Part shown: positions 5,015-64,000 of the stretch, one piece after another
How positions within the stretch are numbered: position 1 is the first letter of the stretch
Layout: every line of letters starts with the position of its first letter
From: a virus
Strand: one strand, 5' to 3'
IMG/VR virus record: IMGVR_UViG_3300045988_154277
DNA length: 64,000 nt
Program-made: the position numbers and the translations under genes
Notes under the pieces: generated by a model
Told to the model about the DNA's origin: nothing
Databases searched by the model: none
The model's input: the letters and a program-made list of their open reading frames with translations, nothing else

Positions 5015-6931
5015 TCAATCTAAGATACCGAAGAACGGACCGAACAGACCGATCGGTCGAGCGATGTTCGAAGTCTGAGGATCGTTGAAATAATCCTTGA
5101 GTCGTTCGAATGCAAGCTCCATCGACACAGTTCGGTTGCTGATCACATCTTCCAACTTACCGAACGTCACATGATAGGGATCGGTTACCGTACAGAGTTG
5201 ATAGTTCTGCTGGTTGTCGATCACCAAGTTGTGAAGCACGGTCTCCAGGTGGAAGATCGGGATCGAAGATTTTCGCCAGACGATCTCGCAGAAATCGTTC
5301 AACGCGTGAGGAACACTGTTATAGTTCCCTATCGTAGCGGTCAGGAAGGTCGCTACGCTCTTGGTATACGTGATCATATCATCGTTCATGATGATGAATT
5401 TGAACACGTCCTGCTTCGCATCGAACCCTGCCATCGGTACGATCACACCATCTTCGTCGAACTCCAACTTGTTGTAGTTGGTTCTCATGTGGTCCAGGAA
5501 CGCCTCACTCAGATACGGTACGAACGCATCGTACTCCATCTGGATCGTCTCCACCAGTTCCCCATCTTTCAACAGCTCCAGGTAAGACACCTTACTGAAC
5601 GACTCTGCGATGGGAAGTGTATCCAGGTTCAAGTCAACGATCGGCCCAAGCGCATCACTCGGGATCCGGATCTGATACTTATGGATATGTTTCCCCCACT
5701 TCTGATCGAACAGGATGGAGTTGTTGTTCTTGATGAAATACCTTGCAGCACTTTCCGTCAAGTTGTAGATGAGCGAGTTGGTGTTGATCAGGTGTTTCGC
5801 CGACAACACTTTCTGTGATACAGTGGATGATACCTTCGTAGAGCACAGCAGTCCGATATGGATCCCATGTGGAAGATACTTGATCAACCGATCCTTCCCA
5901 TATCCAGCACAGTGTTCACACATCCCGTCCAGATGGTTGCACCCGAACTGAGAGATCATGTTCACTGTTTGACCAACGTATCGATCGATGACGTTCATGT
6001 TGCTGAGAGCGACCCTTCGTCCATCATCGATGATGATCTTGTTGATGAAGTTCTTGGCATACTCTGGTTTGATCGTCATCGGGATCACGTTGTGATCGGA
6101 TCCACAATTTCCAGGATGAACCGTCTGTACCGTGGAACAACCGAGTCTCATCTTCCTTCCGAAATACTGAGACTTCTTGATCACATCTCGTGAGAAGAAG
6201 ATGGACTTCTTCGCTGAGAGGGATTCGGTTGCGAACTCCACCGGTGATTTCAACCCACTGAAGGATGAGGATGAGATCACGAACTTCCGCATCGTATCAT
6301 CGATGTCCGACCGAGGTCCATATGCCAGCAGCATCTGTGGGATCTGGTTGGTCTTCAGAACACCAGCTTGGATGTAGTGATACAGCACGTTGTTCGGAGT
6401 CTTCGGATCTTTCAAGATCTTCAGAAGTTCCTTCCCATCCTGTCTCAGCTGAGCTTCCGCAACCTGAGTACCCCACTTCGGATCGTAGACCTTATCAGCC
6501 AGTTCCTTGATCGGAGGATACTCCAACAGTTGCGTCAAGCTCAGACCATCGATAGATGGCATGTACTCACCCAACTCCGTTGTGATGAAGTTGTAGATCC
6601 TCGATACATTCCGGAAGATCTTGTGGACCATGAGCATGTGGTCCACGTCTGGACGCTCATCCAAAAACCGATCATAGATGATACTGTAGATCTTACTGCT
6701 ACTATCGCTGGAGATACTCTTGATATTGAACGTCTCCTTGATCGTTGGTAAGATCCCGAAGTACATCAACGGTTCCCAGTACAGGATATTCAGGATCGCC
6801 ATGCGTGTAGGCATCTGAACACTCTTGTTGTCTCCAAGAACCAGTTTACACATCCCACGATCTTGATGTGTCTGACGAAGTTGATCGGCATAACCGGCTT
6901 GGGTATACTGATCTGGTGTTAATACAAGCAT
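5015..6931 (-). CDS. multisubunit RNA polymerase beta-prime subunit, N-terminal fragment (split subunit)
   Basis: KKSQYFGRKMRLGCSTVQTVHPG resembles the beta-prime [26 protein letters not shown] segment. YNKLEFDEDGVIVP aligns with [15 protein letters not shown] (acidic triad written as EFDED). ATG overlaps stop of preceding beta-C gene (TAATG) after a GAGGAAG SD, as in the rpoB-rpoC order. Confidence 0.65.
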   Translation of the reverse strand: MLVLTPDQYTQAGYADQLRQTHQDRGMCKLVLGDNKSVQMPTRMAILNILYWEPLMYFGILPTIKETFNIKSISSDSSSKIYSIIYDRFLDERPDVDHMLMVHKIFRNVSRIYNFITTELGEYMPSIDGLSLTQLLEYPPIKELADKVYDPKWGTQVAEAQLRQDGKELLKILKDPKTPNNVLYHYIQAGVLKTNQIPQMLLAYGPRSDIDDTMRKFVISSSSFSGLKSPVEFATESLSAKKSIFFSRDVIKKSQYFGRKMRLGCSTVQTVHPGNCGSDHNVIPMTIKPEYAKNFINKIIIDDGRRVALSNMNVIDRYVGQTVNMISQFGCNHLDGMCEHCAGYGKDRLIKYLPHGIHIGLLCSTKVSSTVSQKVLSAKHLINTNSLIYNLTESAARYFIKNNNSILFDQKWGKHIHKYQIRIPSDALGPIVDLNLDTLPIAESFSKVSYLELLKDGELVETIQMEYDAFVPYLSEAFLDHMRTNYNKLEFDEDGVIVPMAGFDAKQDVFKFIIMNDDMITYTKSVATFLTATIGNYNSVPHALNDFCEIVWRKSSIPIFHLETVLHNLVIDNQQNYQLCTVTDPYHVTFGKLEDVISNRTVSMELAFERLKDYFNDPQTSNIARPIGLFGPFFGILD

Positions 6932-8874
6932 TATACTTCCTCCTCGACTTCTTCGACCTCGAACCCGACGGCTGCCAGCTGGTGTTTGAAGATCCCGATG
7001 TTACTGGCACCATCGATCATCTCTTCTGTAGACATCCCGAGATCGTAGATCCCGCTGGGTTTATCAGCCGTCAGCAACAGATACTGGAGTCGATCGATCG
7101 CTGCAGGAGAGTTGCTGTATGTACACAGTAATCTCACAGCCATCTTCGCACCACAACACATCGTAAGAATAGCGGTCTCATCCTCACCATATCGGATCGG
7201 TGTTTGACCGAACATACTCTGTGCTTTCAGACTCTTGCTGTTGGGTTTGATCGGAGATAGGAACTGACTCTGATATCCGAACTCGATGCAGTTCAACTGG
7301 TCGATCGGGATCTTACCGAGCAGGTGGATATAGAGTTCTCCACAGAGAGCATCCGTACAGGTCTTCACCTGTTTCTTACCACCTTTCCCATCTTTGGCGT
7401 TGTAAGTAACCGGAGTTCTCCGGATCCCATACTTCTTCGCCAATCGATCGATCATCTCAGGACTGATGCTGTCACAGAACGGAGGGATCACCATAAAGAT
7501 CCCGTGTTTCTTGCAGCTGTCCACGAACTCATCTTCATAGTTCTTGGTCTTCTCACGAACATACTGCGCGAACACAGGTCTTACCTCTTGGAGATAATCG
7601 AGGATATACTCATATTGAGCTTCGATCGAACTCCACTGTTGAGTCCAGAGATTCCGCACAACCACATCAGAGACATAGTTGATATATTGTTCGTAATACT
7701 GACCACCATTCAGACGGTTGAACGGAGATGCACCTGTGATCAAGATACTGGCTCTGGTTCCATCCTCCATCGTCGGCATATCTTCATCTTCCCAGATGTC
7801 CGAGATCACACCTTTGTTACCAGCGTTACCAACCAGCTTGTAACCACGGTCGACTTCCCGCTGATAAGCATAAGTGATCTTAACTCGGATGAAGTCAACC
7901 GGTTCCTTCTTATTCATCAGGAACATGGACTTCCCACCTCTCCAGTAACTCCAACCTTTACAGCTGGTTACCAGAGTGTTGAACGCAGGAGTAACCTCAC
8001 GTCCTTCTCGTTTCATCTGCTCATACACATCAACGATAGCCGTCCAATAGGTGTGATACTGATCCTGATACTGCATCAGCTGGGCGTATGCTGTATCAGA
8101 ACTCAGCTCTGGATACTTCTTGTGGTTCGTGAAAATCTCAACATCGATCACAGTTGCACCGGCTTCTGCTCGATAGAGATCATCGTGGAACTCCTCTGCA
8201 CGACGGAGCTTCTCATCGGTCATATCCGTTAAGAACGAACTCTTGTTCTGTTTCCGGAATCCGATCAGGATCCCATCTTCACGGATCTGTTCACCGATTT
8301 CAGGGAACGTCTTATACTCGTTCTCCCCACCGTACAGATTCAGAGGGATGTCGTCGATCTTGACATCGATCGTCACACTGTCGATCACCGTGTGTGAGAG
8401 TTGTTTCTGAAGGCTTCTGCTGATCACGAATGCGTCTTCTGTGGTAGCCCACAGAGGAAGATATGCGACGTTGGCATTCACTCCCATCTTGTACAACCCA
8501 TCTTCGTGATTCGGAGATGTAACGAACTTCGTTGTTTGACTGACCAGACGTCCTTCTTGCAGCTGGTCAAAGTTCATCTGTTTGTTGATGTATCCGAATC
8601 CGCTATACAGTTCGGTATAACTGTCGACTTCGAAATACCCAACTTTACCATCTTCTGCTCCGATGTAGATCACAGTGAGACTGGGGTTGTTCTTGATCTT
8701 CTGAAGACCTGCGTTGACTCGGAACTTCGGGATCACAGCGACGATCTGTACGTCCTGATCTCGAGTACTTTTGTCAAATTCATATTTTCCGATCTTCGTC
8801 TCGTAGCCGGACTGGATCCGTGCTGTCTGACACCCATCCACCACCATCATCTGCGGGGCATTTGAGGAGAGCAT
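6931..8874 (-). CDS. multisubunit RNA polymerase beta subunit, C-terminal half (split subunit)
   Basis: Contains KLVGNAGNKGVIS (cf. bacterial KMAGRHGNKGVIS), AYLPLWATTEDAFVIS (cf. AFMPWNGYNFEDSILVS) and FGQTPIRYGEDETAILTMCCGAKMAVRLL (cf. [26 protein letters not shown]). N-terminus begins at the position of the DANRALMG motif. Confidence 0.85.
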   Translation of the reverse strand: MLSSNAPQMMVVDGCQTARIQSGYETKIGKYEFDKSTRDQDVQIVAVIPKFRVNAGLQKIKNNPSLTVIYIGAEDGKVGYFEVDSYTELYSGFGYINKQMNFDQLQEGRLVSQTTKFVTSPNHEDGLYKMGVNANVAYLPLWATTEDAFVISRSLQKQLSHTVIDSVTIDVKIDDIPLNLYGGENEYKTFPEIGEQIREDGILIGFRKQNKSSFLTDMTDEKLRRAEEFHDDLYRAEAGATVIDVEIFTNHKKYPELSSDTAYAQLMQYQDQYHTYWTAIVDVYEQMKREGREVTPAFNTLVTSCKGWSYWRGGKSMFLMNKKEPVDFIRVKITYAYQREVDRGYKLVGNAGNKGVISDIWEDEDMPTMEDGTRASILITGASPFNRLNGGQYYEQYINYVSDVVVRNLWTQQWSSIEAQYEYILDYLQEVRPVFAQYVREKTKNYEDEFVDSCKKHGIFMVIPPFCDSISPEMIDRLAKKYGIRRTPVTYNAKDGKGGKKQVKTCTDALCGELYIHLLGKIPIDQLNCIEFGYQSQFLSPIKPNSKSLKAQSMFGQTPIRYGEDETAILTMCCGAKMAVRLLCTYSNSPAAIDRLQYLLLTADKPSGIYDLGMSTEEMIDGASNIGIFKHQLAAVGFEVEEVEEEV

Positions 8875-9448
8875 TCTTTATGTTCAACCGAGTGCGTTAC
8901 TTCTCGGCCCGCAGCATTACCTGCTCCGCTTATAGATTTGCTATAAGAACAGACTATATCTCACTCCTTACTGAGTAAGGAGAACCTCCATTTCCACCCA
9001 CTTGGGTGTACATTTAGTCGTTGATCTTTCTTCTCAGAGAGAAGCTTAGAAGCTGATTTCCCATTGTTCGTTATCACACGATAACGACATCCCTTAGCAC
9101 CGTGTTGTTACACACAGCTTTTATTTCAGCATAGGACATTCTAATCATTCTTTCTGTCTTTCGACCGCGTTCACGCTTACCCTTGCGAGTTACGTTGTAG
9201 CTGATTAGACTTTAGTGGATCCCAGACCGTTAGAAGGTTGATTTCACCACTACATTACTGTAATAGCGCCCAATGTTGTTTAGGCCACGTTGCGAACTGA
9301 TGAACTGTAAGAAAGGTGAAAGGAGCGCAGGCGTTCCTGTCAATTCCGGTCTTACATTTAGATCTGATACAAATTGCGATGTCTTCACATTGATTCCTCC
9401 TAGTTTGGGTGTTATAGTTTCCAATGTTATGACTCAACATACTCAGAT
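8875..9448 (-). other. ~575-nt noncoding leader/structured region upstream of RNAP beta-C gene
   Basis: No ORF >60 aa on minus strand. Multiple short perfect hairpins (CTCCTTACTGAGTAAGGAG, CTTATAGATTTGCTATAAG, CTTCTCAGAGAGAAG, GTTATCACACGATAAC) sit between the TATATATTAC promoter motif at ~9450 and the ATG at 8874. Confidence 0.4.
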
Positions 9449-23892: not shown

Positions 23893-24426
23893 TTAGTTGA
23901 CTTTGTTCCAGAGGTTGGACTCAGCCTGTCTACGTTTAACAAGCCCCGGTGCGATATCGTAAACGATCTTACCGTTCTTATCCTTTACGATTTTGCCCTT
24001 CGAGACTCTCTTCACTTTGTTCCATCTCTGGATCTCAGAGGGAACCGAACCATACTGGCGCTGGTTCAGTTTCTTAAGGAGAGTGGATGAAGCGAAGTTC
24101 GATCTCCCCACGTTGTAAGTGAATACGATGAGAGCAGCCTTCTGGTTGTCCGTCAGAGGGACCTTGACCTGTGTATCGATATATCCACCGATACTGGTTA
24201 CGTATCCGTCCAGAATACGATTTGCTTCTTCTTTAGTCATGTGACCACGAGCAACGAGGTTCTTATCATTAAACCCCCAACCGATGGCTTTCTTGTTGAC
24301 ATCAGTGTAGGGGGCTGAACGGAAGGTTTCGAACTGCTTGATCAGTTCGGTTGCCGAAGTCTTCCAATCTTGTGCGAAGACGTTGATGGTGAGGATGATG
24401 GTGATAAGAGTGATGATGTGTTTCAT
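23893..24426 (-). CDS. endolysin, GH24 (T4-lysozyme-like) with N-terminal signal peptide / signal-anchor
   Basis: N-terminus MKHIITLITIILTINVFAQ is hydrophobic. LIKQFETFRSAPYTDVNKKAIGWGFN matches the T4L catalytic E...D...T region ([21 protein letters not shown]). ALIVFTYNVGRSNFASSTLLKKLNQRQYGSVPSEIQRW matches [41 protein letters not shown]. Confidence 0.8.
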   Translation of the reverse strand: MKHIITLITIILTINVFAQDWKTSATELIKQFETFRSAPYTDVNKKAIGWGFNDKNLVARGHMTKEEANRILDGYVTSIGGYIDTQVKVPLTDNQKAALIVFTYNVGRSNFASSTLLKKLNQRQYGSVPSEIQRWNKVKRVSKGKIVKDKNGKIVYDIAPGLVKRRQAESNLWNKVN

Positions 24427-24484
24427 GTTGTTGATTCCTTTTGTTTAGGGTTGTTGGGTTGATACAGCTAGATGTATTCAATAA

Positions 24485-24494
24485 GTAATATATA
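24485..24494 (-). promoter_or_regulatory. TATATATTAC promoter motif upstream of endolysin gene
   Basis: Plus GTAATATATA, ~60 nt upstream of the ATG at 24426. Confidence 0.5.
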
Positions 24495-24574
24495 TGCGAA
24501 ATCTTTTGAACTACACTGCATACGGTGTATCTAGGTATGGGATAACTACCCATACCTAGATACGTTGAAATGTA

Positions 24575-25567
24575 TTATGCGTTGGCGGGAGCAGGAAGTT
24601 CTTTCGTATTGGAGAACTTACGATTGAATGCTTCAAGACGGTTCTTGATGTAGAAGATACCATTAGCTGCTTGTTTCGCACATTCTTCGATAGCATACAT
24701 CACAGTTGCGGCTTGTCTGATTGTATTCTGAGCAACCTTAAGTTGATCTACATCACCCTTCTTCTCAGCACGTGCTTTGAGTTTCTCAGGGATCGTACGG
24801 AGACTGTTCACCAGGTTCTCACCCTTCTTGCACATTTCGTGGAGAGATTTGGACATCTCAGGCGCTTCATTGATAAACTTCTCATCGACTGGCTTTTTAG
24901 GATACTCACGTCCACCAGTCATAACAATACCGAGTTCGCCAGCCAGATCATTGCCGTGCTGACGGATCTGATTAGATTCTTCGTCGTTCATAGAACGGAT
25001 CACATCAACATTGGCTTTGGCACAGATCGACCGATCGAAATCAGAGATGATCTTCTGGATGTTGGAGTTGGTGAACGATTCGGCAACCATCGTTGGATTA
25101 CTGTCTGTAATGATGGTATCTGCTCTGAATGGTTGCTTCTTTGACTGTCGTTTCTTTGAATGATTGTTTTTGGCTTCCTTAGCCTCCTCTTGGACAGCTT
25201 GGTTGGCTTTGTCCGTAGACTTGAACAAGTTCGTAAAGAACTTCTTGATCTTCGTCCACAGATCTTGGAACCATTTCACAACAGCATCCCAACCTTTCGA
25301 GATGGTCTCACCGAGACCTTCCATCGTGAGCGATATGTTGTTCTGTCCGTAAAGGTACTGAATTGTTTCAGTACTTCCAGACTGTTGGATCACATCACGG
25401 ATTTGGATCAGCTGATCCATCGTGGTGATACGATCCATCAAGCAGTTGTATGCTTCCCAAGTGACGTCATAAGCCGACTCCATCGCGATATAAGCATCCA
25501 GGAGTTCTTCGTTGCTTGCGACACTGGATGTCTGCGGGATGCTCAGGTGTTCTAATCCGAGGTTCAT
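24575..25567 (-). CDS. paralog-family protein C (candidate inner-body/virion protein)
   Basis: MNLGLEHLSIPQTSSVASNEELLDAYIAMESAYDV... with the N-terminal family signature. AAAGGAAACAACATC SD. Confidence 0.55.
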   Translation of the reverse strand: MNLGLEHLSIPQTSSVASNEELLDAYIAMESAYDVTWEAYNCLMDRITTMDQLIQIRDVIQQSGSTETIQYLYGQNNISLTMEGLGETISKGWDAVVKWFQDLWTKIKKFFTNLFKSTDKANQAVQEEAKEAKNNHSKKRQSKKQPFRADTIITDSNPTMVAESFTNSNIQKIISDFDRSICAKANVDVIRSMNDEESNQIRQHGNDLAGELGIVMTGGREYPKKPVDEKFINEAPEMSKSLHEMCKKGENLVNSLRTIPEKLKARAEKKGDVDQLKVAQNTIRQAATVMYAIEECAKQAANGIFYIKNRLEAFNRKFSNTKELPAPANA

Positions 25568-25687: not shown

Positions 25688-27202
25688 ATGGTATGCACTC
25701 TGATATACACTACACTGAAGGAGGTATTTATGGCTTTAGATCCAGTACGCATCTGGCTGATGGATGTGCCTAAATTCATACGAGAGAATAAATGTCAACC
25801 TGTAACATCCGTCTTCATCCGTGAGACCACAACGAATGAATTTAAACACGATGGGTTGTTCTCAGAAGACATCTTCGGTCAGATCAATACTCCGGAGCGG
25901 TTGATCCGGTTCGGATATGTCGATCTTCGGACGAAGATCCTACATCCGCTCATCTACATCGATATCGTGAAGCTGAAGGCTTTCTATGGAGAGATCATGG
26001 CTCGGAAAGCTTATGCCGTGTTCAATCCAGAGACCAAAGAGTTCATTCGTGCATCGGAAGAAGACGAAGATGCTGATACAGGGTATCAGTTTTTCATGAG
26101 TCATTTGGATGATTTGAAGTTCGAGAAGAACAAGTCCTTGAAACACAACGAGATGGTTGATGTGATCGAGCGACACCAAGGCAAGTTGACATTGGAACAA
26201 TGCCTTGTGATGCCAGCTGGATTACGAGACCTTAGAGAAGACGAAGGTAAACCAGCTGCAGATAGTATCAACAAACTCTACTCTTCTCTGATCAACTACA
26301 CACTGGCTCTTCCCACTACCAAGACTACGTCTGATATTTATGACAATGTCAGGTTCTCGATCCAGAAGAAAGTCTCTGAGATCTATCAGTATCTATTCGA
26401 TATGATCGAAGGGAAGTTCGGGTTCTTCCAGAGGAAGTACGGTTCTCGTAACCTTGCATTGGGTACTCGTAATGTGGTATCCACAGCATCCATGGCTGCG
26501 TTATCACCAGATGATCCTCAGTATCTGAAAATGGATGAGATCAAGATCCCACTCTTCCAGTTATGCAAGATGTTCACTCCGTTGATCATCTACAACATCC
26601 GGATGCTATTCCTGAACGAAGTGTTCCATATCACATCGGACCAGGTTGCTTTGATCGATCCAGAAACCAATAACTTGGTCTACCAGCCGATCGATGAGGA
26701 TGAGAAGAGTCGGTTCCTCTCATCGGAAGGGATCGAGAAGATGATCGATCTTTTCAGGGATCCTGAGTTCCGGTTCACTCCTGTTGTGGTATACAACGAA
26801 GAGGGCAAAGGATATTACCTCTACATGGTCTACGATGATACGGAAGTGATCTACTTGACGAGAAGCGTCAGTGAAGTGATCAACAAGATCAAGGATAAAG
26901 TAGGTGTCTACGATCCTCAGAAACTGAGACCTCTCACTTATGCTGAGATGTTCTACATCGCAGCGTATCGTGCTACTTACGACAAGACTTCATTGATCAC
27001 ACGATATCCTGCCATCGAAGTAGGATCTGAAGTACCGAATCGTGTACATCTGATCTCAACGAACCCTGCAAGGAAGATCAATCTGTTCTCTACGATGGAT
27101 GATGATAACTGGATCATGCTTCCAGAGTATCCGATCATCAACAATACCTTTGTGGATAGTCTGATCCCGCATCCACAGATCTTAGGAGGGTTAGGGATGG
27201 AT
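25688..27202 (+). CDS. RNA polymerase beta-prime N-terminal fragment, exon 1 (second RNAP)
   Basis: N-terminus ETTTNEFKHDGLFSEDIFGQINTPERLIRFGYVDLRTKILHPLIY matches the beta-prime N-terminus ([23 protein letters not shown]...RMGHIELAAPVAHIWF). KFGFFQRKYGSRNLALGTRNVV matches [20 protein letters not shown]. Reading frame ends ...ILGGLGMD at 27202, just before an intron core. The track ORF runs on into the intron to a stop at 27235. Confidence 0.7.
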
Positions 27203-27606
27203 TCGCTAAACAGTCGAAGTCCCGCTATCGGGTAACCGGTGGTGACAAGAAAGTGAATTGCTGGAAACATCTAAGAGCTAGTTTGGCTACAGCGTGATCC
27301 GAAAGGATGAATGCGATATGCGGTCGAAAGACAGAAAAAACAAACTAGATGACCTATGGTGAAATAAAAGCTTGTATGTACCACACCAACATACAGGTCC
27401 TAAAGGTTGATGCTTCTATATGAAGCGGAACAATGTGCAATCAGCAGCTAAGCTTATAGATAACTCTCTGAGTCGCTATGAGAAAGTTCATCGACTAGGT
27501 GCTCCCACCCGAGCGATTGGGTGGATGGTATAGTCAGGCCGCTAATGAAGATTAGTGGGTAAACGTATGTAAGTTATTGATATTCAATGAGTTACAACGG
27601 AAGATG
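27203..27606 (+). ncRNA. group I self-splicing intron (no internal ORF) inserted at the NADFDGD catalytic motif of beta-prime
   Basis: Canonical core GACTA-ggtgct-CCCACCC gagcgatt GGGTGG-atggta-TAGTC (P7/P3'/P8/P7') at 27489-27535. P9 hairpin CTAAT-gaag-ATTAG. 5' splice site after U27202 with P1 GGAU|UCG paired to CGA(A)GUCC including a U.G wobble. 3' splice site after G27606. Joining gives in-frame ...LGGLGMD|FDGDTASS. Confidence 0.65.
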
Positions 27607-27786
27607 TTTGATGGCGACACAGCCTCGTCCAATGGTGTATTGAGCAAACAAGCCAACCAAGAAGTCAATGAGTATTTGGATTCAATAGGACGTTACATCC
27701 ACAGTAACGGAAAATTGATGCACGGTACCACTGACTTGATCAAATTGACGATCTTCAACTTATCGAGAGATCCTGTTCTCGTTTAA
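27607..27786 (+). CDS. RNA polymerase beta-prime N-terminal fragment, exon 2
   Basis: FDGDTASSNGVLSKQANQEVNEYLDSIGRYIHSNGKLMHGTTDLIKLTIFNLSRD aligns with [56 protein letters not shown]. No SD; the track gives only a TTG-start ORF here. Confidence 0.65.
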   Translation, partial: FDGDTASSNGVLSKQANQEVNEYLDSIGRYIHSNGKLMHGTTDLIKLTIFNLSRDPVLV

Positions 27787-27799
27787 AACAAAAGAAGAA

Positions 27800-27834
27800 C
27801 TAAGGAGGGATAGGACCAACCCTATCCCTCCTTA
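27800..27834. terminator. 15-bp perfect hairpin, bidirectional terminator between convergent genes
   Basis: CTAAGGAGGGATAGG-accaa-CCTATCCCTCCTTAG between the plus-strand stop (27786) and the minus-strand gene end (27838). Confidence 0.6.
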
Positions 27835-27837
27835 GTA

Positions 27838-59906: not shown

Positions 59907-62900
59907 ATGCCATTCACATTCGATATGTCACCGAGTGAAGAGCGTCTTCTCTACGACAAGTTCTTCCGGACGAATATGTTCCGTAGGATCAATGATCTTA
60001 CGAGATTGTGGAACCGAGAGGATCTTGTTGAATACCCCGTAGGGAGTATGCTTCACTTGATCGACGATAACTTCTTGATGAACCATCCTGTTGTGTTGGT
60101 TCCCGATACCTCTGGTTGGTCTATGACCAGAAAACCAGACCGTAAGTTCGTGATGCACATCATAGAACCGGTACCTGCAACAGCGATCCCTCTTACAGAA
60201 ACCTTCGCTCTACCTACCTCAGGGGTGTCTGTTACGATCTTGAACTTCAAGAAGCGTAATCAGAACCTGATGCGTCCTGTTGTGAAGATGGAGGATTTTC
60301 CGAGTCCGATGCGTCCTGAAGTACAGAGTATCATCTCGTACAACGCACTTTACCGTGCTCGTATCTTTGGACTGTTGCGAGGATATCGTCGGTTCAATTA
60401 CATCTTCACCAACATCTTCAATACCATCTGCTCGATCGGAACGGGAAGACGACATTTCATCCCGATCCCTGTCGGAGATAAGGTCTTTGATCGAAACAAG
60501 TTCATGACCTCTTTTATCAAACACGATAAAGGTTCTCTGAAACTTGCAGAAGATCCGTGGTATCTGTTCATGGTTCACTTCATGGGGTGGTTGAACACCC
60601 AAAACACACCCTCTCTGTTCGAGAAAGTCCCTGAGAAGTATTGGGAATATATCAACTTCGTTCTGTATACAAGAACCAAAGTTCTTGTTCTCAATATGAA
60701 GCTCTTGAAAGAGTTCAACGAAGGGAACAAGATCCTTTGGCGGGTGATGAATTTGATCAACCTGATGGCTGAGGAAGGTCATCAAGCTGCGATGCAGGAC
60801 TTCGGTGATGTTCCGGTTGCATGTGATACACAAGAAGAACCAGGAGAACTCGCTGTTCAAGCGGATACTCCTTTTACAGAAGAGAAGGAACCGATCCATG
60901 TCACTACTCAAGAGACTGCTTCTGATCGTGACAACCAAGATCAGAGTACTGTTCCACAAGGATCCCCCAGAGAGGAAGATCAGGTAAACGAGGTTACCTT
61001 ACAGCAACCTCCTGCGGAACCTGCCCCCAAACAACAGGAACCCCCGTCTCCTGTGAAGACGATGTTCACTTCTCCTACCAGGAGGAAACCCATCCCGTAT
61101 CTCACCACTCAGCAGAGAGTCAAACGGGAGACTGATGAGTTCGAAAAGTATCTCGATTTCGAACCTCAGACGCTGACGATCGATCCCAAGTGGTTAGAAG
61201 TAGAGATGGTGGAGGGGAAACAGAATGCTCCCGAGTTCAAAGAGAACATGACGGAAGAGGAACAGAAAACCTCCAACCAGAAGTTCTTGAATGAGATTGA
61301 CGAAGGAGCGAAGACTCATATCGAGAATGATCAACATCTCAACAACTATCAAGCAGAGCAAGCGAAGAAACTCGCTGAAGCATACAAGAACATCAAAGTT
61401 GGAGATAAGACGATCGAACAGATCATCCAGGAAGTACCAGATGACACGGTTGCAACCAACACGTTGAATTTCTTGGAGGACGATCCGGATATCGTGGATA
61501 AGTCCATGTTGAAATCTTCCGTTGCTACGTTCGAACACGACTACATGAAGAAACTCTTCCTTCGGGATATGGTGATGAACCTCACCTCATTCAACAAACA
61601 AGGGATGTTCCTGAAGCAAGTGGATGTGGAAGACGTCAGCGATAGTCTGAACCAGCTGATGGAGTACAAAGTCACCTACGAGGATACAAGCAAGAAAACG
61701 CACGTCATCCGATTCAAACTTCCCAAAGTAGATGAGAGAGGATACTGTTATGTGAACGGTACGCTTAGCGTCCTGAAGAAACAGAGAGTCCCTCTTCCGA
61801 TCTGTAAGATCAACCCGACAACTGTTACGTTGACCAGCAACTACAACAAGTATCTGGTGGTGCGGAATGTCACGGTGGCTCACAGTTATATCAACTACAT
61901 CGAGTCGATCCTGAACAAAGGCAATACACCAGAACATCCTGTTGTTGTTCAGCTGAACACCAAGACTTGGAACGATGTGACACTCCCCTACGAGTACACC
62001 TCGTTGGCGAAGAAATACCTCAGCATCAAACTCTCGTTGACAGAGACAGTTGAGTTCTATTTCAACCTGGAAGGAAGACACCAGTGGTTGAGGGATGTTG
62101 GGGGTCTCTTACCAGAGGACTTGGACCTCGTAAAATCGATCGAGAGCGACGCGAAATGCCTTGCTGTAGCGTACGTTGGGAAGCGTCTAATCGGGTTCAT
62201 AGATATCAACAACATATTTACCGTGATCAACTTGGACGACCATACAACCTCTGCTTCTACGACGATCATCGATTTCTTGTGTGAGCAGTTGAATGTAGCT
62301 CCGACTCCGCTGTCAGAGTGGACGGATTTCAAACTGTTGGAGACAACGGTTCCTGTGATCTTCGCTCTCTGTTATCGGTACGGTCTGAGTGAGATGTTGA
62401 ACTACACCAAGACACAGTATCGTATCTTGGAATCAGGAGAACGTTCCTATCGGAACTGGTCTGATGTTGTAATACGGTTCGCAGATAAGACGCTGATCAT
62501 CCCGAGGTCTCCTCTGGTGAACAGCATGCTGTTCGCTGGGTTGAACTTCTTCCAGTTGAACAAGATCAATATGGAAGAGATGGACAGTAAAGATATCTAC
62601 TACGATCTTCTCCAGAGCAAGAAACGTTCTGTTCATTTCCTGAAAGGGATCGATAACTTCTTCGATCTGTTCGTGGATCCGATCTCCAGAGAGGTTCTGG
62701 AACAGATGAAAGAACCAACCAATGCAAGAGATATCCTGATCCGTGCTACTCAGCTTCTGACGACAGAAGATCACAAACCTCAGGCTTCCAGCACCAACTT
62801 CCGATTCCGTTCTTATGAACAGATCAATAGTGCGATATACAAAGTACTGAGTCGATCCTTCGCCAACTACAGAAGCAAGAGTGTAGGCGCTACTCACAAG

Positions 62901-63272
62901 TGGAGTATCGCAGATTACGAAGTGCAGCAGATGGTTATGCAGGATCAGTTAAAAGAGAATGTCGACATCATCAACCCCATCAACGACATCAAGTATCAGG
63001 AGGAGTTCTCCCATGCTGGATTCGCTGGTGGACGGAAGAGTCTGCAGAGTTTTACAGTCCCAGATCGTCAGTATCCGAAAGATGCTGTCGGTATCATCTC
63101 AGAGGCTACCGTCGATAGTGCGAAGACTGCATTCGCAGCGTCCACTTCGATGGATCCGACGATCGTCAATATGCGTGGGATGACACTCACCTCTAACCCA
63201 GATGAGTTGAAACCTACTCAGATCTTGTCGATCAGTTCTTTGATCATGCCTGGAGTGACGCAAGATGATTAA
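59907..63272 (+). CDS. RNA polymerase beta subunit, N-terminal portion (split subunit of second RNAP)
   Basis: GAAGGAGG SD. FSHAGFAGGRKSLQSFTVPDRQYPKDAVGIISEATVDS aligns with beta [37 protein letters not shown]. The C-terminal ILSISSLIMPGVTQDD aligns with VVSVGASLIPFLEHDD. It stops exactly where the conserved DANRALMG motif would follow. Confidence 0.65.
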   Translation: MPFTFDMSPSEERLLYDKFFRTNMFRRINDLTRLWNREDLVEYPVGSMLHLIDDNFLMNHPVVLVPDTSGWSMTRKPDRKFVMHIIEPVPATAIPLTETFALPTSGVSVTILNFKKRNQNLMRPVVKMEDFPSPMRPEVQSIISYNALYRARIFGLLRGYRRFNYIFTNIFNTICSIGTGRRHFIPIPVGDKVFDRNKFMTSFIKHDKGSLKLAEDPWYLFMVHFMGWLNTQNTPSLFEKVPEKYWEYINFVLYTRTKVLVLNMKLLKEFNEGNKILWRVMNLINLMAEEGHQAAMQDFGDVPVACDTQEEPGELAVQADTPFTEEKEPIHVTTQETASDRDNQDQSTVPQGSPREEDQVNEVTLQQPPAEPAPKQQEPPSPVKTMFTSPTRRKPIPYLTTQQRVKRETDEFEKYLDFEPQTLTIDPKWLEVEMVEGKQNAPEFKENMTEEEQKTSNQKFLNEIDEGAKTHIENDQHLNNYQAEQAKKLAEAYKNIKVGDKTIEQIIQEVPDDTVATNTLNFLEDDPDIVDKSMLKSSVATFEHDYMKKLFLRDMVMNLTSFNKQGMFLKQVDVEDVSDSLNQLMEYKVTYEDTSKKTHVIRFKLPKVDERGYCYVNGTLSVLKKQRVPLPICKINPTTVTLTSNYNKYLVVRNVTVAHSYINYIESILNKGNTPEHPVVVQLNTKTWNDVTLPYEYTSLAKKYLSIKLSLTETVEFYFNLEGRHQWLRDVGGLLPEDLDLVKSIESDAKCLAVAYVGKRLIGFIDINNIFTVINLDDHTTSASTTIIDFLCEQLNVAPTPLSEWTDFKLLETTVPVIFALCYRYGLSEMLNYTKTQYRILESGERSYRNWSDVVIRFADKTLIIPRSPLVNSMLFAGLNFFQLNKINMEEMDSKDIYYDLLQSKKRSVHFLKGIDNFFDLFVDPISREVLEQMKEPTNARDILIRATQLLTTEDHKPQASSTNFRFRSYEQINSAIYKVLSRSFANYRSKSVGATHKWSIADYEVQQMVMQDQLKENVDIINPINDIKYQEEFSHAGFAGGRKSLQSFTVPDRQYPKDAVGIISEATVDSAKTAFAASTSMDPTIVNMRGMTLTSNPDELKPTQILSISSLIMPGVTQDD

Positions 63273-63289
63273 CATTATAACAGTCCGGT

Positions 63290-63715
63290 ATACCCGAAGA
63301 GGGTGTGCTTGTTACCATTCCTAATACTAGGAAGTTCTTAAGGTTCTACATACTACAACGTAGCTCAAAAGGCAAGCGTGATAGTCGCGAAAGCAGAAAG
63401 AAATGTAGAAATGACCTATGCTGAAATAAAAGCCTGTTACAAGGTGCTAAGGGTTGCTAACAAGGAATTACTAGTAGCGAAGTCTTGTCTATAAGACAGG
63501 ATGTGCTCAACGACTAGGGGGTTAATCGCCCCGTACCCGCCAAGTGGCGCTGGGAAACGGAATGGACCCTAACAGATTAAGCTGAGGGTTTGACATAGTC
63601 TCTACATCTACGGAAAGCGTAGAGCAGAACTTAATGTTCGGGTGATGAGTAACGATCATCACTGAAGATAAAGAGCAAGCGTCAAAATTTAAACATTACT
63701 GAACCGTATACTGGA
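63290..63715 (+). ncRNA. group I intron-like element B (homologous to the beta-prime intron)
   Basis: Shares AGCGTGAT..CGAAAG..AGAAAGAA..GACCTATGCTGAAATAAAAGCCTGT with the intron at 27203-27606. Core CAACGACTAGGGGG...TTTGACATAGTC (P7/P7'). P9-like CTCTAC...GTAGAG and GTGATGA..TCATCAC hairpins. Boundaries uncertain. Confidence 0.45.
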
Positions 63716-64000
63716 AACAGTGTGCGTGCATAGACCCTTTAATTGTCTGGGAGTTCCTAAAGCCTGTTGGACCACAACGTGACTTGTAAAAGTGAGCGTG
63801 ATGGTGACGAAAGTAGAAAGAATCAACAGGATGTCTCATGCTGCAATAAAAGTCTACTTCTAGTAGATGCTAAAAGACAGTAACAATGGATAATCAGCAG
63901 CCGAGATCCTTCACGGAGGATCAGGTTCATCGACTAGACCTGAGAAGGTCGTACCCCTCAAGTGAGGCTGCGGAAATAAGGGTCCGCTAAACGTATCGTA
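63716..64000 (+). ncRNA. group I intron-like element C (truncated by window end)
   Basis: AGCGTGATGGTGACGAAAGTAGAAAGAA...CATGCTGCAATAAAAGTCTAC...TTCATCGACTAG...CTAAACGTAT are the same conserved blocks, in the same order, as the beta-prime intron. Confidence 0.4.

Follow-up and report, generated by a model that had tools for sequence, protein, structure and literature searches.

The 64,000-nucleotide (nt) viral sequence analysed here, IMG/VR record IMGVR_UViG_3300045988_154277 (the window), carries at positions 25,688-27,786 a gene for part of an RNA polymerase (RNAP) that is interrupted by a putative group I intron. Two open reading frames (ORFs) are present on the plus strand of this locus, 25688-27235 (515 aa) and 27577-27786. 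A Pfam search returned no significant match for either, so gene identification required the PHROGs profiles. Residues 16-505 of the first ORF aligned with positions 4-484 of phrog_2986 ('RNA polymerase beta subunit', E = 4e-125), and residues 11-63 of the second with positions 485-538 of the same 539-position profile. The profile alignment is cut between D505 (GAT 27200-27202) and F11 (TTT 27607-27609) with zero positions missing. This bears out the proposal of the initial annotation that the 515-aa ORF is an N-terminal fragment of the β′ subunit stopping at its catalytic DFDGD motif, and that the FDGD-containing frame, with no Shine-Dalgarno sequence usable at 27577 or 27604, continues β′.

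The first ORF opens mechanically at 25688, and the true start is probably ATG 25730, which is preceded by AAGGAGG at a spacing of 6 nt and is equivalent to the Met at which homologs P0001 and P0002 begin. With this start the gene comprises 491 + 59 = 550 codons, the same length as P0001 (550 aa). In tblastn searches the spliced protein matched 314 phage records and gave one unbroken alignment in 292 of them, all phiKZ-like jumbo phages. The gp180 homologs aligned with ~31-33% identity and 93-98% query coverage, and the matches include PhiPA3 gp212, which is annotated in its record as similar to phiKZ gp180 and 201phi2-1 gp275 and adjoins a gp178-type β gene. Because the protein matches the gp212/gp180/gp275 family and gp275 is the virion-borne β′ N-half of 201phi2-1 (PMC2919709), the window gene is, as judged by homology, the N-terminal β′ fragment of a phiKZ-type virion RNAP (phiKZ gp180/PhiPA3 gp212 family). 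By analogy with 201phi2-1 mass spectrometry (PMC2919709), its product would be packaged in the virion. This family has a conserved split point after the double-psi β-barrel (PMC7598289), and the interruption in the window leaves 59 codons of the β′-N gene on its 3′ side, close to that natural split (PMC7598289), as the initial annotation had remarked. A megablast search with the locus found zero matches among 50,697 phage records, which points to the absence of a close cultured relative.

Intron-less alleles define the exon junction (written below with a slash). The best match in a large protein collection, P0001 (99% identity over 98% of the query), runs ...PHPQILGGLGMDFDGDTASSNGVLSK... unbroken across the motif and is the same as the window in its exon 2 part except for one I/V change. 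P0002, P0007 and P0008 are likewise unbroken, the intron-less alleles showing GMDFDGDTA(S/N). The DNA encoding P0001 is a 17.6-kb Logan contig, L001, with the junction GGTATGGAT/TTCGATGGCGAC; it is collinear with window position 27202 joined to 27607 and has 94.1% nucleotide identity to the spliced window gene. Removal of the intron thus restores the intact conserved frame ...LGGLGMD/FDGDTASS..., and we placed the junction at D/F because the 99%-identical allele is unbroken exactly there. The spliced product, for which an alignment check had been suggested, is collinear with P0001 and with the 292 phage genomes. Two further IMG/VR loci, L002 and L006 (99% amino-acid identity), carry a 405-nt insert at the same position. 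The intron is therefore polymorphic at a fixed site, being carried by the window and L002 and lacking from L001 (94% nucleotide, 99% amino-acid identity). For a candidate homing endonuclease, the uninterrupted target site would read GGTATGGAT/TTCGATGG. In a search for a co-conversion tract in the flanking exons, the window and L001 differed near the junction at 7 positions per 60 nt, relative to a gene mean of ~3.6, a value not separable from background and falling in the spread seen elsewhere in the gene.

The insert itself is most probably a group I intron. The Rfam model RF00028 (Intron_gpI) aligns 27198-27557 to its full length (positions 1-253) with 38.9 bits under E-value reporting, corresponding to E = 3e-8 in the 901 nt searched and 2.1e-6 for both strands of the whole 64-kb window. 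We built a structure from P1 to P10 by hand (Table 1), using the homologous inserts of L002, L087, L088, L085 and L091, whose host proteins are 77-99% identical. In this six-sequence alignment, standard pairs occupy 96.6% of 638 pair cells, and P3, P4, P6, P7, P8 and P9 all form in 6/6 introns. Changes on both sides affect 31 of 110 pairs, versus 11.6 ± 2.4 in column shuffles (0 of 500 as high), and sliding the partners by 1-3 columns leaves only 1-6 such pairs; the P5 extension (helices 6-12) holds 19 pairs changed on both sides. P10 also covaries, with guide UCGUA and exon 2 UAUGA in L085 (a double compensatory change) versus UCGAA and UUUGA in the window, and it shows one single change among the relatives. 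The single-sequence minimum free energy (MFE) fold, at -122.6 kcal/mol, lies 4.1 standard deviations below shuffled sequences (z = -4.09) and recovers P2, P4, P6, P8, P9 and P9.1. Between the 3′ strand of P3 and P8 there is no room for P7.1/P7.2.

The core described in the initial annotation is present as listed, namely GACTA, the P8 hairpin, TAGTC and the hairpin that follows, here P9. Its splice sites stand as well: base 27202 is T, with the exon sequence GGAU pairing to GUCC of the internal guide, and base 27606 is G, the in-frame product ...GMD/FDGD... being that of the intron-less allele. Overall, protein, RNA-model, covariation and allele evidence independently agree on group I identity, both splice sites, the in-frame junction and the identity of the host gene, and the resemblance to a group I intron is far beyond chance, as seen in the Rfam E-value, the fold z-score and the intron-less allele. 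We assign a probability of roughly 0.92 to the reading that 27203-27606 is an ORF-less group I intron within the DFDGD codons of a virion RNAP β′-N gene and is spliced as described here.

Several observations weigh against this reading. At the curated gathering threshold (50 bits), Rfam gives no hit anywhere in the window; P3 has merely 4 bp; and the helix closing the P5 domain, for which no register is shared by the window and L085, L088 and L091, had to be omitted from the structure. In L091 the related insert ends in C, not G, and the exon 2 ORF has its own ribosome-binding site (RBS) and ATG; decay can thus occur within this intron family. Mobility is left unexplained by an intron that holds no endonuclease ORF: on both strands of 27203-27606 the ORF list contains none longer than 37 aa and no intron-encoded endonuclease. 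The low Rfam score is attributable to the ~160-nt P5 insert relative to the model and to the short P3. The initial annotation had named the absence of an Rfam hit as part of a refutation; RF00028 is indeed silent at the default threshold, but the full-model match emerges with E-value reporting, and such a refutation would be a false negative because the threshold hides the match.

The silence at gathering thresholds, together with the lack of megablast matches to known phages, might instead be taken to mean that there is no intron here and that the reading frame is broken by chance, by misassembly or by the insertion of unrelated DNA. We give this explanation almost no weight, since inserts with matching boundaries occur in independent assemblies (L002 and L006, L085 and L086, L087, L088, L089 and L090) and both the full-model Rfam alignment and the covariation speak against it.

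Splicing would follow the established chemistry of group I introns, in which P7 is the helix housing the guanosine-binding site. In the pre-mRNA, the intron would fold into the P1-P10 ribozyme, and free guanosine bound in P7 would attack after U27202 at the U.G wobble of P1. The 3′-OH of exon 1, held by the guide UCGAAGUCC through P1 and P10, would then attack after G27606, and the ligated mRNA would encode a 550-aa protein containing ...LGGLGMDFDGDTASS.... Guanosine attack and exon ligation are proposed by analogy with that chemistry; that the RNA is catalytic, that it is essential and how it spreads are likewise inferred. Unspliced RNA would be translated only as far as the in-frame TAA at 27233-27235, which ends exon 1 read-through and whose UAA sits in the GUAA tetraloop of P2; in the relatives the read-through stop falls anywhere from 0 to 31 codons into the intron. 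The read-through product would end ...GMDSLNSRSPAIG, without FDGD, and would lose two of the three metal-binding Asp residues, so that splicing would be obligatory for an active enzyme.

A different outcome would be a dead intron in a split gene, with the two exons translated apart and their products assembling non-covalently, in the way already seen for the β and β′ fragments of such polymerases. Jumbo-phage RNAP subunits are naturally split (PMC7598289), the final three bases of the window intron are ATG in frame with exon 2, and L091, with its non-G 3′ end and an RBS and ATG before exon 2, may be an intron decaying toward such a split gene. For the window we regard this as very improbable. 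Neither 27604 nor 27577 has a Shine-Dalgarno sequence at a suitable spacing. Every ribozyme helix is intact, with compensatory changes, as are P10, the U.G pair and the terminal G, and a dead insert would not have maintained them. A break at D/FDGD would also cut the metal-binding loop itself. Exon 2 as an independent gene was rejected, with the RBS absent and the ribozyme intact.

How the motif is occupied in relatives was surveyed among β′-N homologs, comprising 84 IMG/VR loci and the 120 top-ranking protein clusters; an nhmmer profile of the intron and Rfam searches were run on the related loci. Most homologs are uninterrupted, and about one in four of the 120 clusters is affected at the motif: the protein ends directly behind the first Asp in 14 and behind DFD in 5, and 12 hold an insert in frame behind DFDG(N/D). 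Nucleotide inserts at the motif in 10 other loci were all recognized by Rfam as group I (10/10), nine with scores past the gathering threshold (54-88 bits). The insertion point is D/F in the window, L018, L021, L028 and L030; one nucleotide after D/F in L026, L032, L034, L035 and others; DFD/GD in L092 and L094; DFDG/D in phage ZPAH34 and, in a non-virion paralog, in phages HHBS8_1 and Miami; and directly after DYDGD in phage VP4B. Some introns at or beside the same site carry ORFs, such as an HNH_3 endonuclease ORF in phage PDCC-1 and a 421-aa zinc-finger ORF in L030.

The in-frame inserts, of 196-485 aa, are located right after DFDG(N/D), and the larger versions include a LAGLIDADG domain. 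We identified them as inteins at the loci L003/L005/L007/L008, L010, L011, L016, L029, L033, L036, L038, L042, L043, L045, L046, L051 and L064, and in the proteins P0003, P0005, P0013, P0023, P0026, P0029, P0036, P0065, P0092 and P0097. An AlphaFold model of the 196-aa version was useless from the single sequence (predicted local distance difference test, pLDDT, 37) and reached pLDDT 88 with a 9-row alignment. Against the PDB, the latter predicted structure has as its 49 best matches (E ≤ 0.001) inteins and related autoprocessing domains of the Hint fold (BIL, Hedgehog); the top 17 ranks are all inteins. The intein blocks are atypical: the block B His is absent, and (Y/F)-Asp, not His-Asn, precedes Thr+1 at the C-terminus. 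In all 12 of the 12 inteins beginning with Cys1, position -1 holds Asn where the third catalytic Asp would stand, and canonical splicing of these would leave DFDGN. Three Ser1 inteins keep Asp at -1, one of this lineage (L091) and two of a second lineage (P0103 and P0104) that has the canonical block B His.

Intron and intein also co-occur. L085 (3974-5996) and L086 (host protein 87% identical to that of the window) are arranged as ...GMD, intron, YDGN, intein, TASS..., such that an intron of the window family and an intein lie in one gene, two codons apart. At L091 (3974-6070) the related intron has a longer 3′ part, with C as the last base before TTTGAC, and its exon 2 ORF combines the AAGGAG RBS and ATG with a Ser1 intein and Asp at -1. 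Covering introns at five phosphodiester bonds and two intein lineages after the motif, these data tentatively suggest, at somewhat less than even odds, that the 15-bp DFDGD sequence of jumbo-phage β′ genes is an unusually dense homing hotspot and that the RNAP either uses an Asn ligand or regains its carboxylate through non-canonical splicing. This hotspot and the atypical intein in relatives add some interest beyond the intron itself. The comparative set, with intron-plus and intron-minus alleles, five insertion points, intron and intein in one gene, and an odd intein altering an invariant Asp, might be used as a small model for how self-splicing elements compete over one target.

The initial annotation had gone further and suggested that the intron gates production of the polymerase. 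This stands insofar as unspliced RNA would give a truncated protein without FDGD, which is trivial for any intron in an essential codon, and nothing shows regulated splicing. In its stronger form, the proposal holds that conditional splicing, responding to GTP, translation or growth state, times or limits the active virion polymerase. Unspliced RNA cannot yield active enzyme, translating ribosomes that reach the read-through stop in the P2 loop could disturb folding, and for T4 introns splicing reportedly varies with translation and with growth state (Sandegren and Sjoberg 2007, recounted in PMC10914365). We nonetheless consider regulation unlikely, as the intron is dispensable, being absent from a 99%-identical strain, and the five insertion positions of unrelated introns, together with the inteins at the motif, are what homing into a conserved target would produce. 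Because of this dispensability, and because the same codons hold unrelated elements elsewhere, the window intron is best read as a selfish element, obligatorily spliced and lodged at a site that the host cannot change.

Polymerase genes of jumbo phages are already known to host group I introns (phiKZ, 201phi2-1, AR9, PhiPA3 and the Jug phages), and the window intron is a further example of this habit, at a motif whose adjacent positions are taken up in GenBank genomes by inserts that carry no annotation. Endonuclease introns beside the phiKZ RNAP genes gp56, gp72 and gp179 were predicted in 2002, according to the account in PMC10914365; a mobile intron splits gp273/274 of 201phi2-1 (PMC2919709); AR9 and Staphylococcus jumbo phages of the MarsHill group have intron-disrupted RNAP subunit genes (10.1101/2020.12.14.422802); and the 'Jug' phages of the gut carry in their essential genes a mean of 18.5 group I introns per genome as well as inteins (PMC12880540). 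In the literature searched, with the AR9 sites outside the comparison, we found no description of an intron at D/FDGD of a virion β′ gene. The β′ catalytic loop thus joins the polymerase sites colonised by self-splicing elements in jumbo phages of the nucleus-forming type.

A functional study exists for the PhiPA3 gp210 intron (Birkholz et al. 2024, PMC11620839), which also belongs to group I and splits the phiKZ-type virion RNAP β gene gp211/209; like that of the window, it directly follows invariant Asp residues of the catalytic region. It differs in its subunit (β) and motif, and it carries an HNH nicking endonuclease acting in phage competition (PMC11620839), whereas the window intron is ORF-less; this intron endonuclease acts as a weapon between co-infecting jumbo phages (PMC11620839). 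The nearest published sequence relatives are the introns of Pseudomonas phage HHBS8_1 and Klebsiella phage Miami, with 76-82% nucleotide identity over P3-P5 and nhmmer scores of 76 and 93. Both resemble the window intron in lying at the catalytic motif of a β′ N-fragment gene with a short second exon, but they interrupt a non-virion paralog at NADFDG/D, four codons downstream of the window site. GenBank lists their exons as separate genes (HHBS8_1, L096, 2993-4378; Miami, L095, 3003-4393), an HNH ORF is annotated in the HHBS8_1 intron, and the split β′ gene of that phage adjoins the nuclear shell gene.

In three cultured phages, gp180 homologs are likewise interrupted at the DFDGD codons: Vibrio phage VP4B (L099), Photobacterium phage PDCC-1 (L098) and Aeromonas phage ZPAH34 (L100), with the inserts unannotated. 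Rfam scores VP4B at 51.2 bits and PDCC-1 at 38.7 bits as group I and gives none for ZPAH34. The intron sequences differ from that of the window, as do the insertion points, VP4B being interrupted behind DYDGD and ZPAH34 behind DFDG; the PDCC-1 gene stops after the first Asp, with the HNH_3 ORF present and the YDGD codons not located. The same unannotated interruption recurs in the GenBank genomes of VP4B, PDCC-1, ZPAH34, HHBS8_1 and Miami. For annotation, the two window ORFs should be joined into a single 550-aa virion RNAP β′-N gene, and default Rfam thresholds overlook this intron family.

Classical phage group I introns exist in both ORF-less and endonuclease-bearing versions. Those of T4 td, nrdB and sunY and of the SPO1 and LUZ24 DNA polymerase genes also interrupt essential enzyme genes at conserved codons and have an early in-frame stop. 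The window intron differs from them in its host gene, its large P5 extension and its lack of space for P7.1/P7.2.

The nhmmer profile of the intron family detected three more members in the window, at 9225-8994 (-), 63353-63520 (+) and 63747-63937 (+), all in other RNAP subunit genes. The minus-strand intron is flanked by a first exon of ~45 codons (about 9289-9424, ...LSPFLQFISSQ) and by ORF 6931-8874, which matches RNAP β profile phrog_3295 (positions 35-694 of 698); its site falls in the region aligning to the '...NMQRQ' motif of bacterial β. The second follows ORF 59907-63272, a gp178-type virion RNAP β (phrog_3148, positions 2-1050 of 1424) ending ...VTQDD, which is the insertion site of the PhiPA3 gp210 intron (PMC11620839). 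The third stands in tandem, ~60-100 nt after the preceding intron, and this spacing implies a mini-exon or twin arrangement.

Table 1. Features of the interrupted β′-N gene, its putative intron and other family members in the window
Feature	Position	Strand	Remarks
Exon 1, virion RNAP β′-N	25730-27202	+	491 codons; final GAT is first Asp of DFDGD
Putative group I intron, 404 nt	27203-27606	+	RF00028, covariation, z = -4.09; no ORF >37 aa
P1 5′ strand GGAU	27199-27202	+	5′ splice site after U27202; U.G wobble with G27219
Internal guide UCGAAGUCC	27214-27222	+	UCGAA with exon 2 UUUGA forms P10; GUCC with exon 1 GGAU forms P1
P10 guide strand UCGAA	27214-27218	+	pairs with exon 2 UUUGA
P1 GUCC strand	27219-27222	+	pairs with exon 1 GGAU; wobble pair invariant in 6/6 related introns
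P2 hairpin	27223-27244	+	9 bp, GUAA loop; 100% paired, one compensatory pair
P3 5′ strand AGUG	27252-27255	+	with UGCU 27500-27503; U.G to G.U swap in L088
P4 5′ strand UGCUGG	27259-27264	+	with UCAGCA 27441-27446; invariant
P5 extension, peripheral	27278-27426	+	several hairpins, three with GNRA loops
P6/P6a/P6b	27447-27487	+	three compensatory pairs in P6a
P7 5′ strand GACUA	27493-27497	+	with UAGUC 27531-27535; invariant
P8 hairpin CCACCC/GGGUGG	27505-27524 (27505-27510/27519-27524)	+	one compensatory pair, one wobble change
P9 hairpin	27539-27558	+	in Rfam and six-sequence alignments
P9.1 hairpin	27569-27595	+	helices 19-20; in MFE fold
Terminal G (omega G)	27606	+	3′ splice site after G27606; junction fixed by L001
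Exon 2, virion RNAP β′-N	27607-27786	+	FDGDTASS..., 59 codons + stop; profile positions 485-538
GC-rich hairpin, 17 bp	27799-27836		terminator-like; common to convergent downstream gene
Group I intron	8929-9292	-	Rfam 36.5 bits; nhmmer score 100 to the family of the 27203 intron
Second group I intron	63266-63624	+	Rfam 43.1 bits; 5′ splice site after 63269
Further family member	63700-64000, past window end	+	nhmmer 63747-63937, score 64; P7 3′ strand outside window

Immediately upstream of the β′-N gene, the opposite strand (23893-25567, -) holds two genes, one endolysin-like (phrog_7, matched by Phage_lysozyme in relatives) and one resembling those for phiKZ internal head proteins. The gene order is unlike that of PhiPA3, where the β gene comes after gp212.

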